43,534 nucleotides of DNA from UHGV virus genome UHGV-0803811; one strand, given 5' to 3'. Under the pieces are notes generated by a model. The model had not been told where the DNA came from, did not search any database, and saw only the letters and a program-made list of their open reading frames with translations. This document shows positions 40,005-41,865 of the stretch, piece after piece. Every line of letters starts with the position of its first letter. The first letter of the stretch is position 1. Source of the stretch: a virus. A program made the position numbers and the translations under genes.

Positions 40005-40046
40005 CGCCATGATTGCCACGGATGGCAACATATTAACGGCATAATA

Positions 40047-40100
40047 TTGACTTTTTGAATAACTTTGGGGAAACTTGACACCAATAATGGGCGTTTTTTA
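40047..40100 (+). promoter_or_regulatory. pR'-like late promoter / qut region
   Basis: TTGACT followed by ttttgaataactttggg and a weak -10 (gaaact), closely paralleling remembered lambda pR' (TTGACT-tattgaataaaattggg-TAAATT). Confidence 0.4.
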
Positions 40101-40241
40101 CATGTCATTGATGAGTCTCAATAACCTGCCGCCGAGTAGTTTTTATGCTCTGAATTGTATTTGTGTAGTAAACATGCTGACTGCAATGTAATAGAGTTTT
40201 TTTAGCCTGTAACCTCTTGACGGCATTGAATTGCTTTTGTT

Positions 40242-41000
40242 ATGAGTTGTAAGCCAATGTTATCATCTTGTATTGGGGTGGTTATGAAGGATGGTGCACT
40301 GCTCAGGAGTTCTTCACTTTTTATTGCCTACATGGGATGCCTTGGATGGGGGAGTGCTTATTTCTATGGATGGGGTACTTCTTTTTACTACGGCTTCCCA
40401 TGGTGGATTGTAGGTGCAGGTGTTGATGATGTTGCCAGAAGTTTATTTTTTGCAGTTATCGTCATTGCTATATTTCTTATCGGTTGGGGTATTGGTGTTG
40501 TATTCTTTTTCGCAGTGAAAAGAAAACATTCTATGCAAGAGCTAAATGTATTTCGCCTTTATTTTGCTGTGGAATTATTGTTTGTGCCGGCAATTATTGA
40601 GTTTTCTATATTGAGACAGAAGATTCAGGTACCTCTTTTGCTACTGTCAGCAGCGATTGCGCTGGCGGTTACAATTTCGATAAGATCTTATGGGCGATTT
40701 TTATCGGTATCATGCTTCTATGATAAGCCATTTATAAAAAAACATTTTTTTGAGATTGTGATGATTGCTTTTGTGGCATATTTCTGGCTTTTTTCATTTC
40801 TGACAGGATATTACAAACCGCAGTTTAAGAAAGAATATGAAATGATTAATTATAATGATGGTTGGTATTATGTTCTTGCTCGTTATGATAATTGTCTGGT
40901 TTTGTCTACTTCTTTTAATGCAGGTAGTAAAAGGTTTGTCATTTATCAATCAGCACAAGATAAGAATCTTCAGGTTGATATTGTAAGGACCAGAATTTAA
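40242..41000 (+). CDS. AT-rich polytopic membrane protein of unknown function (moron between Q and lysis genes)
   Basis: 252-aa ORF with about five hydrophobic segments and a C-terminal soluble tail; likeliest start is the ATG at 40284 (after GGGGTGG); distinctly AT-rich. Confidence 0.55.
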   Translation: MSCKPMLSSCIGVVMKDGALLRSSSLFIAYMGCLGWGSAYFYGWGTSFYYGFPWWIVGAGVDDVARSLFFAVIVIAIFLIGWGIGVVFFFAVKRKHSMQELNVFRLYFAVELLFVPAIIEFSILRQKIQVPLLLLSAAIALAVTISIRSYGRFLSVSCFYDKPFIKKHFFEIVMIAFVAYFWLFSFLTGYYKPQFKKEYEMINYNDGWYYVLARYDNCLVLSTSFNAGSKRFVIYQSAQDKNLQVDIVRTRI

Positions 41001-41430
41001 TTGGCTGCATAAATAATATTTTAAGTTGCAAGTTGGCTATTCGTAGGAATAGAACCTTAGGCATGCTGAATGCGTTTTCTGAACATTGTTTTATAAACTG
41101 TGTCTGCTTGCTGTTGTGATCCTGCTTTTAGTGATGGTGATGATGGATTTCACCAGCAGGATAATGTTGGTACTGACTGATGGCGCTCTGGTCTGCGGCA
41201 TTGTGGTATTGCTGTGGCCGATGATGAAAGAACAGAATGAATAATTCTTGACTTTTTTGTTTACTGTTTATTAAAAAAACAACCGCATGGTGAATCCTCC
41301 TTGGAGGGGCTAAATGATCGAGTTTTAAGGGCACGTAGCGAGTTCTGTTTGATCATTGCAGAACTTAGCGGGAGGCGCCATGCGTACATCACTAATGTTA
41401 TTTCCTTCTATCATTTTCCTTGTGAGTTCT

Positions 41431-41457
41431 GGCTGCGCATGGCGCGGCCTTTTTTTT
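41431..41457 (+). terminator. strong intrinsic terminator in the late leader upstream of the holin
   Basis: 8-bp stem ggcugcgc/gcgcggcc (one G-U pair) followed by eight T. Confidence 0.55.
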
Positions 41458-41865
41458 ATGACCTGCCACTGGCAGATGGTCATCCTGTGATTTGATTCCG
41501 GTTCCGGCTTTTTAACTCTGTTCCTGTACACGGGAGAAATTCTATGTCGATTAATCGTTATGATATTGGTTACAAGAAGTACCACGTATTGTGTTGAGAT
41601 AGAAAGCCTGGTGCCAGAGGTAAATGCAGCAGCATAATAAAAAAGAGCCAGCGCAGAAGAGAACGGGTAAAAGAGTCTGCGCTGGCGTGGGGATATTCCC
41701 CGTGGAGAAATGATATGTAACACACATCGGGAACCTTTCTATATAAACATTATCATTATTGTCAATCATAACAGTCAGGTATTATGACGTTTATGCATCA
41801 GGGCCATCAGGAATTAACTGGTGGCTTTTTATTGTTGTCAGCTTCCGGATAACGGGAGACGGGGT

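Follow-up and report, generated by a model that had tools for sequence, protein, structure and literature searches.

A prophage cargo cassette with a TfpB/STM1630-family membrane-protein gene and the small RNA PasD1 between Q and the holin gene of virus genome UHGV-0803811

Genes and signals between Q and the holin gene

Virus genome UHGV-0803811, whose entire stretch of 43,534 nucleotides (nt) was analyzed and is called the window here, has a spacer of 1861 nt (positions 40005-41865) between its late antiterminator gene Q and the holin gene S, with which the lysis cassette starts. The spacer holds a gene for an inner-membrane protein of the TfpB/STM1630 family, a gene for a small DUF3927 membrane protein, the Hfq-dependent small RNA (sRNA) PasD1, the scar of a deleted esterase gene and an opposite-strand sRNA (Table 1). 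It is a known, widespread prophage cargo cassette rather than a lone moron followed by non-coding DNA. The spacer is 99.7% identical, with zero indels, to prophage PP4 of enteropathogenic Escherichia coli (EPEC) E2348/69 (NC_011601 1058980-1060840), and the resulting offset of 1018975 was used to transfer published coordinates to the window. At a coverage cut-off of at least 80%, 586 of the 5,426 complete E. coli genomes contain the spacer, and the best genome matches, which are 99.7-99.9% identical, include those of EPEC E2348/69 and O26:H11 strain 11368. The segment 40140-41568 is also 98% identical to phages 434 and 2B8.

The C+G content is 39% over the spacer and 36% in the membrane-protein gene, compared with 51-52% in Q and the lysis genes on either side, which is the atypical base composition expected of a moron. 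The homology of lambda, HK97 and HK542 to this region is limited to pR'/qut and the cassette is absent from them, as expected for an inserted gene, and the cassette is found downstream of two different Q types. No tRNA genes were found in the spacer region. An initial annotation of the window, made from its letters without database searches, had described an AT-rich moron in the slot between Q, ending at 40004, and a holin gene starting at 41866. The AT-richness and both borders are confirmed, the holin being of class II, and the slot is exactly that of stx in Shiga toxin (Stx) phages. The same annotation was wrong in calling the AT-rich sequence after the membrane-protein gene non-coding, since the DUF3927 gene, PasD1 and a minus-strand Esr41/PasA-like sRNA lie there. 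The cassette is real, yet already known in its parts and mostly ordinary.

Table 1. Features of the spacer between Q and the holin gene and of its borders
Feature	Coordinates	Strand	Basis
Late antiterminator Q, lambda type, 207 amino acids (aa)	39381..40004	+	Pfam PF03589 (Antiterm), E 1e-57
pR'/qut homologue	40047..40100	+	Column-for-column alignment with lambda and HK542
Decayed 434/82-type tR' relic	40120..40144	+	AATAACCTGCCGCCGAGTAG----TTTTT
Predicted promoter region belonging to the membrane-protein gene (two readings that overlap)	40217..40266	+	Conservation, promoter scan
TfpB/STM1630-family inner-membrane protein, 238 aa (likely start), = E2348C_1012	40284..41000	+	PF27470, PHROG 1521
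DUF3927/TciB-like small membrane protein, 52 aa, two hydrophobic segments	41086..41244	+	Pfam PF13064, E 3.4e-14
Candidate PasD1 promoter (-35 TTGACT 41248-41253, -10 TAAAAA 41272-41277)	41248..41277	+	Read from sequence
PasD1 sRNA, 173 nt, Hfq-dependent, STnc100-related	41285..41457	+	Published coordinates mapped
nanS-p/SASA (sialate O-acetylesterase) deletion scar	41544..41653	+	blastn against phage 434, phage 2B8 and E2348/69 PP2
Esr41/PasA-like sRNA (about 41731 to 41637) with its promoter	41637..41765	-	Rfam, folding, published counts
Second intrinsic terminator	41800..41833	+	Terminator scan; -15.8 kcal/mol, z -3.6
Class II (S21-type) holin, start of the lysis cassette	41866..42081	+	Pfam PF04971, E 1e-32; PGAP in E2348/69

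The reading frame of the membrane-protein gene is open back to 40242, from where the initial annotation had counted a protein of 252 aa. This frame, 40242-41000, belongs to a real gene: the dN/dS ratio is 0.05-0.18 in comparisons with homologues of 46-97% identity, indicating strong purifying selection, and 80 loci of the IMG/VR database encode the protein intact and with 100% identity. The length has to be revised. The true start is likely the ATG at 40284, giving a product of 238 aa, because the Met encoded there is the first residue of all 23 diverse homologues and because 40242 falls inside a predicted promoter -10 element. GGGGTGG precedes the ATG at 40284, and the Prokaryotic Genome Annotation Pipeline (PGAP) uses the same start in one genome.

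The protein had been assigned to no known family, and this was incorrect. All 108 homologues found carry a precomputed match to Pfam PF27470 (TfpB), PGAP lists the E. coli protein under 'STM1630 family protein', and the match to PHROG 1521 (unknown function) has an E-value of 2e-154; identity to the Salmonella member is 46% over 238 aa. Scans of the protein against Pfam, NCBIfam and PADLOC returned nothing, the local copy of Pfam predating the PF27470 model. The family profile had no match among the PDB sequences by hmmsearch, no fold match was obtained for the protein, and 36 family members scanned against Pfam at E <= 1 gave just scattered, inconsistent weak matches. A profile search that covered 1.84 billion representatives exhaustively returned 71 clusters only, of which the named ones belong to Enterobacteriaceae, Pasteurellaceae and Neisseria. 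The Pfam name TfpB presumably comes from the pilin-inversion locus of Moraxella. Literature searches for TciB and TfpB returned unrelated papers on chemistry, anaesthesia and type IV pili.

A confident AlphaFold2 model built from a 36-sequence alignment has a predicted local distance difference test (pLDDT) value of 80 and a predicted template-modeling (pTM) score of 0.74. It contains helices at residues 10-36, 47-79, 89-111, 116-139 and 149-181, followed by a five-strand C-terminal domain at residues 184-235. Lys and Arg residues cluster at the N-terminus and in the loops connecting transmembrane (TM) helices 2 and 3 and TM helices 4 and 5. By the positive-inside rule, this clustering of positive charge suggests an N-in/C-out topology with five TM helices, in which the GWGSAYFYGWG..YYGFPWW motif and the beta domain would face the periplasm.

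The DUF3927 protein encoded downstream reaches a Pfam score of 53 bits, above the cut-off of 25. It also belongs to PHROG 1470 and is annotated by PGAP and in the records of phages 434 and 2B8. The PHROGs label for this family, 'TciB-like inhibition of cell division or resistance to colicin', gives a putative function. The label presumably goes back to the tci gene names of phage P1, which we take to be an assignment by homology only.

The DNA that follows encodes PasD1, one of the PasD sRNAs (PasD1/PasD2), also listed as EcOnc13. In E2348/69, PasD1 is a Northern-validated, Hfq-dependent sRNA of prophage PP4 with coordinates NC_011601 1060260-1060432 on the plus strand (Pearl Mizrahi et al. 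2021, PMC8550237 Table S6), and all 173 of its 173 nt are identical in the window. Its Hfq-dependent accumulation and target pairing come from Northern blotting and from RIL-seq (ligation and sequencing of interacting RNAs) in E2348/69 only (PMC8550237). The candidate promoter listed in Table 1 is suitably positioned for the published 5' end of PasD1, putting the start 8 nt upstream of it, and is the same in E2348/69 PP2, E2348/69 PP4 and phage 434 save one base; from its sequence we infer that TTGACT/TAAAAA serves as the PasD1 promoter. Rfam STnc100 (RF02076) matches 41259-41413 with 38.9 bits, below the gathering threshold of 47. This score is consistent with PasD being a diverged relative of STnc100, and the two are of common ancestry (Zhu, Shabalina and Storz 2026, PMC13192938). 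The conserved neighbors of PasD are Q and LpxR, and the locus lies upstream of the esterase and holin genes; PasD1 directly adjoins the holin operon, and PasD2 lies upstream of the sialate esterase gene (PMC13192938). A stem-loop with a U-tract and the synteny of PasD, with Q upstream and esterase/holin downstream, are both found in the window.

The hairpin with eight U residues at 41431-41457 folds with -15.2 kcal/mol (z -3.5) and is PasD1's own 3' end. The strong terminator that the initial annotation had placed at these positions is therefore present, and it is first of all the end of an sRNA. An open reading frame (ORF) of 64 aa at 41301-41495 overlaps PasD1 and was rejected as a gene: its frame is not conserved, being broken by a 1-nt deletion in PasD2 and phage 434. 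The phage 434 record annotates the equivalent 64-aa ORF over PasD as a 'putative membrane protein'. Rfam matches to asX2, SorX and GcvB were discarded as terminator-driven noise.

Beyond PasD1 lies the scar of nanS-p, in which the first 25 nt of the esterase gene (41544-41568) are joined to its last ~70 nt and 3' flank (41569-41653). By blastn, window positions 41458-41568 align to 3818-3928 of the 434 locus and 41569-41653 to 5683-5769. The scar leaves a 17-codon remnant ORF, and its junction is common to 36 of 80 related IMG/VR loci. This junction tells the PasD1-type arrangement from the PasD2-type one.

The minus-strand element is preceded by a predicted promoter (TTGACA 41765-41760, N16, TATAGA 41743-41738) and ends with an 11-bp hairpin and U-tract (-25.6 kcal/mol, z -6.6). 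It matches Rfam Esr41 (RF02676) with 32.3 bits (E 5e-4; gathering score 102) and occupies the position of PasA in PP2. RefSeq calls a 132-aa hypothetical protein here in 585 of 5,426 complete E. coli genomes. In E2348/69 the locus was counted as coding sequence E2348C_1013, with a baseMean of 2064 and a log2 fold change of -2.9 in the delta-hfq strain, and RIL-seq chimeras map to 1060613-1060654 on the minus strand, or window positions 41638-41679, 263 of them with the 5' untranslated region (5'UTR) of entC (PMC8550237). The 132-aa ORF, 41325-41723, was rejected as a gene, as both reads and chimeras fall on the terminator region of the sRNA. The element behaves as an Hfq sRNA by RIL-seq and is a diverged paralogue. 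RIL-seq in E2348/69 also recovered chimeras of PasA with the sister prophage's membrane-protein mRNA, in its 5' part (E2348C_0686, NC_011601 740203-740290, equivalent to window 40417-40447; n=57, p = 0.02), and the cassette's own sRNAs may regulate the membrane-protein gene.

A second intrinsic terminator, which the initial annotation missed, ends 33 nt before the holin ATG. Past Rz/Rz1, near the end of the window, a 116-aa ORF at 43085-43435 has an HNH-like Cys/His pattern.

Late promoter region and expression of the membrane-protein gene

Q shares 203 of its 207 residues with lambda Q (98%). The pR'-like promoter predicted by the initial annotation at about 40047-40076 is borne out by homology and can be placed at 40047-40075. 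It consists of a -35 element TTGACT (40047-40052), a 17-nt Q-binding spacer and a -10 element GAAACT (40070-40075), which is TAAATT in lambda. AATAAT at 40083-40088 is a -10-like pause element, for which lambda has the pause-inducing AACGAT, and a run of six T residues follows at 40094-40099. Carried over from lambda by alignment, the pR' transcript would start at about 40083 and encounter the pause element there. The segment 40008-40091 is 90-92% identical over 77-84 nt to the annotated PR'/qut of many lambdoid phage records. At the level of sequence, the promoter, Q-binding element and pause signal of lambda-type late control are all present, and the tR' terminator shortly downstream of the promoter is not.

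A relic of a terminator lies at the expected site. The annotated terminator of phage 434 is AAACCCGCTGCCGAGTGGGTTTTTTTT, and the homologous site of the window carries a 4-nt deletion and substitutions. The relic folds with -5.2 kcal/mol (z 0.18), compared with -13.3 kcal/mol (z -3.5) for the phage 434 terminator. Terminator scans and folding found no hairpin with a U-tract within 40084-41430, and hence none between pR' and the membrane-protein gene, in agreement with the initial annotation; the terminator is missing because the 434-type site has decayed here through the 4-nt deletion. No rut-like stretch (C>G, C-rich and G-poor) was found anywhere within 40084-41431. Among about 83 related loci surveyed, about 50 have the lambda-Q form without a hairpin and about 33 have the 434 form. 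The lambda-Q lineage has no intrinsic terminator for ~1.35 kb past pR'.

The membrane-protein gene has a predicted promoter region of its own, for which two overlapping readings can be given: TTGACG (40217-40222) with TGtTATGAG (40238-40246; -10 TATGAG 40241-40246), and, from a promoter scan, TTGTTA (40237-40242) with TGtTATCAT (40258-40266; -10 TATCAT 40261-40266). The ATG at 40242 sits within the -10 element of the first. The motif TTGAC(G/T)-N15-TGnTAT is conserved in front of homologues with 57-68% protein identity whose upstream DNA is otherwise unrelated. These homologues are located in a Stx-like prophage, on an iro/bor island, on an enterotoxigenic E. coli (ETEC) plasmid and on an Escherichia sp. 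contig. A TTGT-N6-TTGT repeat at 40237-40250 overlaps the promoter and is annotated in phage 434 as a putative CII-consensus binding site.

Published RNA sequencing (RNA-seq) data from EPEC E2348/69, given as DESeq2 baseMean values under activating and non-activating conditions (PMC8550237 Table S2), bear on the window through the PP4 copy, which is 99.7% identical. The PP4 values under activating/non-activating conditions are 147/90 for the membrane-protein gene, 6.0/1.3 for Q and 5.4/1.2 for the holin gene, and nearly all other PP4 genes are below 10 in the non-activating listing (PMC8550237). By these values, expression of the membrane-protein gene in the uninduced lysogen exceeds that of Q and the holin gene about 25- to 70-fold. 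The gene is therefore expressed from a repressed prophage in E2348/69 PP4, as is expected of a moron and as the initial annotation had proposed in suggesting that it may be expressed without Q. The sister copy in PP2, with a Q82-type Q and an intact terminator ahead of it, has a baseMean of 226 (PMC8550237).

The initial annotation tentatively attributed such expression to the pR' leader. In a model built on this idea, tR' has been lost, constitutive transcription from pR' reads into the membrane-protein and DUF3927 genes, and the PasD1 terminator halts it as the Q gate; at induction, Q-dependent read-through would start lysis and would abolish PasD1 3'-end formation on those transcripts. The leader is open to such read-through, as it is C-poor, has no rut-like stretch and no hairpin with a U-tract within 40084-41430, and the terminator that is intact in phage 434 is destroyed at the homologous site by the 4-nt deletion, as in the terminator-less form of about 50 of the ~83 surveyed loci. 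The 98% identity of Q to lambda Q, the conserved qut and the 25- to 70-fold lower expression of the holin gene also agree with the model. However, expression is no lower for the copy that follows an intact terminator (226 versus 147, with the caveat that reads may map to both copies), the gene keeps its own conserved promoter in every context, and pR' has GAAACT instead of TAAATT as its -10 element. PasD1 has a consensus -35 element of its own, PasD2 is equally abundant in the 434-type arrangement, and a second terminator at 41800-41833 also precedes the holin gene. Therefore, we regard this model as rather doubtful.

Its own promoter is the likelier driver of the membrane-protein gene, because the motif is conserved, the family occurs at sites without pR' and the PP2 copy is expressed behind a terminator. 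As for its own promoter and downstream terminator, the conserved -35/extended -10 motif is present, the first downstream terminator is that of PasD1, and the use of this pair is predicted for the gene. Transcription through the pR' leader need not be invoked and probably contributes little. Entries for the Q/tfpB intergenic region or the 5'UTR, in which RNA of a pR' leader might show up, were looked for in the RIL-seq supplements and not found. Transcripts from pR' that lack the Q modification would end at the PasD1 terminator or the one at 41800, and a gating role is plausible. The presence of these two terminators before the holin gene fits with lysis genes that are silent in the lysogen.

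Related loci

Prophage PP4 of E2348/69 has the same genes in the same order (E2348C_1011 to E2348C_1014 and PasD1). PasD1 is identical, and the PP4 locus differs from the window by a few SNPs (single-nucleotide polymorphisms) only, one of which is 6 nt upstream of the PasD1 5' end. The order in phage 434, phage 2B8 and PP2 is Q, membrane protein, TciB, PasD2, NanS-p esterase, PasA/PasC and holin. These loci carry the same cassette, with 98% identity over 40140-41568 and a membrane protein that is 98-100% identical, and all three retain the 1.85-kb esterase gene, which is interrupted by a mobile element in 2B8. In phage 434 and PP2, unlike in the window, the antiterminator is of the Q82 type and the terminator ahead of the cassette is intact, and their PasD2 differs from PasD1 by a 1-nt deletion and 3 SNPs. 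The locus of the window corresponds to the 434/2B8/PP2 cassette with lambda Q and with the esterase gene deleted.

With the pR'-qut-tR' region of lambda, which specifies 6S RNA, the window shares Q (98%), the -35 element, the Q-binding spacer and the promoter-proximal pause element. It differs from lambda in its -10 element, GAAACT, in the absence of tR' ~190 nt downstream and in the 1.35 kb of cargo that precede the first terminator. Stx phages use the same slot for their cargo, which is followed by a PasD/STnc100-family sRNA, an esterase gene and an S21-type holin gene, and in Stx2 phages the STnc100/PasD-family sRNAs lie 75 nt downstream of stx2AB (PMC12370729). The cargo of the window is tfpB and the DUF3927 gene, not stxAB; its esterase gene is deleted and it has no tRNA genes.

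STM1630 of Salmonella, located between steB and sseJ, has the same length as the window protein and is 46% identical to it from end to end, sharing the N-terminal aromatic motif and the C-terminal beta domain. Unlike the gene of the window, it is chromosomal, and its mapped promoter is further upstream and non-homologous. The minus-strand element shares with Esr41 of enterohemorrhagic E. coli (EHEC) and with PasA/PasC the Esr41 core and the terminator hairpin with its U-tract, and it lies between the esterase 3' end and the holin gene like PasA. However, its terminator loop is 25 nt long rather than 7 nt, and its body diverges from that of PasA.

Proposed function of the cassette

The TfpB family is small, is confined to host-associated Gammaproteobacteria and Neisseria, and resides on the main virulence elements of enteric pathogens. 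Its sites without pR' lie beside eltAB on ETEC plasmids, in the steB-sseJ islet of Salmonella, on the Citrobacter rodentium chromosome, on 106 Shigella plasmids of pINV size, and in Avibacterium and Neisseria, where the family gene stands alone among housekeeping genes. The family gene of these 106 Shigella plasmids has 57-59% identity and is flanked by insertion sequences about 5.5 kb from spa40, and on ETEC plasmids it adjoins eltAB and the STb gene; the Shigella pINV and ETEC plasmid copies are all annotated as hypothetical. In total, 3 of 50,697 phage records, representing 2 distinct phages (434 and 2B8), and 156 plasmids, mostly Shigella pINV and ETEC plasmids, have the gene. The family neighbors comprise toxin genes (eltAB, STb), effector genes (steB/sseJ, and NleG and EspJ genes downstream in some prophages), iroBC and bor. 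The gene for the lipid A deacylase LpxR adjoins TfpB-family genes in three unrelated arrangements, namely in phage 434, in a Stx-like prophage that also has pmrD and on the C. rodentium chromosome. Such proximity could point to a functional connection with envelope remodelling.

The Salmonella member STM1630 is bound by H-NS and is induced both inside macrophages and in Salmonella pathogenicity island 2 (SPI-2) medium. Its signature-tagged mutants showed attenuation in calves and chickens, and deletion in strain 4/74 alters intramacrophage replication (PMC6785131 S1 text).

These observations can be combined in the following scheme. Downstream of a lambda-type pR'/qut and a terminator relic whose hairpin is destroyed, a sigma-70 promoter with a -35 and an extended -10 element, ~40-65 nt upstream of the ATG at 40284, would produce TfpB in the repressed prophage independently of Q, so that the 238-aa inner-membrane protein would be made mainly from its own promoter. 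The 52-aa DUF3927 membrane peptide would come next, followed by the Hfq-dependent PasD1, transcribed from its own promoter and ending at the strong terminator, and then by the nanS-p scar, the opposite-strand, Hfq-associated Esr41/PasA-like sRNA, the further terminator and the holin gene. RNA polymerase from pR' that is unmodified by Q would stop at the PasD1 terminator or the one at 41800. The membrane protein, with its N-terminus inside, five TM helices, a conserved aromatic periplasmic loop and a small periplasmic beta domain, would be a stand-alone envelope protein that serves the lysogen in host colonization, that is, a lysogenic-conversion or virulence-island factor. We put the probability at about three in four that the locus as a whole is a lysogenic-conversion cassette in the stx slot, with a TfpB-family gene under its own promoter and a terminator that belongs to PasD1. 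The specific role is more tentative: a lysogen-benefiting function in the envelope or in host adaptation is favored because of the distribution of the family over pINV, ETEC plasmids and the Salmonella islet and because of the regulation of STM1630, at somewhat less than an even chance.

Several points weigh against this interpretation. The use of the promoter of the membrane-protein gene is read from its conservation. The PP2 and PP4 copies are ~99% identical, so that RNA-seq reads may be shared between them, which weakens the argument for expression independent of the terminator, and the pR' leader, having neither a terminator nor a rut-like stretch, could contribute. Deletion of STM1630 has no growth phenotype in LB (lysogeny broth), and the gene is silenced in ST313 (PMC6785131 S1 text). 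No PF27470 member has a defined biochemical function, and a periplasm-facing inner-membrane protein made by the lysogen also has the classic profile of superinfection exclusion.

This profile underlies another explanation, in which the membrane protein, with or without the DUF3927 protein, guards the lysogen against other phages at the inner membrane, by superinfection exclusion or abortive infection. Such a role would suit a polytopic protein of the inner membrane for which periplasmic elements are predicted, which is expressed from a repressed prophage and which lies in the classic moron slot, next to a family with the putative TciB-like label of PHROGs. However, no match to an anti-phage defence or known superinfection-exclusion family was found (PADLOC, 0 at E <= 0.1; none in Pfam or NCBIfam), and the gene occurs in 2 distinct phages among 50,697 records as opposed to 156 plasmids and many chromosomal islets, where it lies by virulence cargo. 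It is also a lone gene among housekeeping genes in Pasteurellaceae and Neisseria, and its Salmonella homologue is regulated as a virulence gene. The membrane protein is less likely to be an exclusion protein, a role that we consider unlikely, and in the proposed role it would not be a protein of the phage life cycle. That the ORF is a remnant, whether decaying or untranslated, or acts in lysis control as an antiholin or lysis timer, is strongly disfavored and highly improbable: PHROGs fragment families cover residues 1-157, 1-85 and 174-252, truncated database entries exist and the gene adjoins the lysis cassette, but the dN/dS ratio is 0.05-0.18, the full length of 238 aa is kept down to 45% identity, the protein is 100% identical in 80 loci, the family is mostly found outside phages with no lysis genes nearby, and the membrane-protein gene is expressed while the holin gene is silent.

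The apparent gap between Q and the lysis genes is densely packed: its cargo comprises a membrane protein that the lysogen expresses, a micro-protein and two sRNAs associated with Hfq. The cassette is found in about one in nine complete E. coli genomes. Annotations can be corrected accordingly: the membrane-protein gene likely starts at 40284, the strong terminator is the end of PasD1, the 132-aa minus-strand 'protein' is an sRNA, and the frame of the 64-aa ORF is not conserved. The question of main interest is the role of the TfpB/STM1630 proteins. The loss of tR' may have a regulatory consequence. Two further readings are conceivable, although quite improbable: that the PasD1 terminator has been co-opted as tR', and that TfpB is an unrecognized shared envelope factor. 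If the former is true, pR' would feed a tfpB-DUF3927-PasD1 transcript in the lysogen, and Q would switch the locus from sRNA to lysis in a manner similar to StxS. If the latter is true, Shigella pINV, ETEC plasmids, the steB-sseJ islet of Salmonella and the prophages of EPEC and EHEC would have an envelope factor in common, which may work with LpxR.

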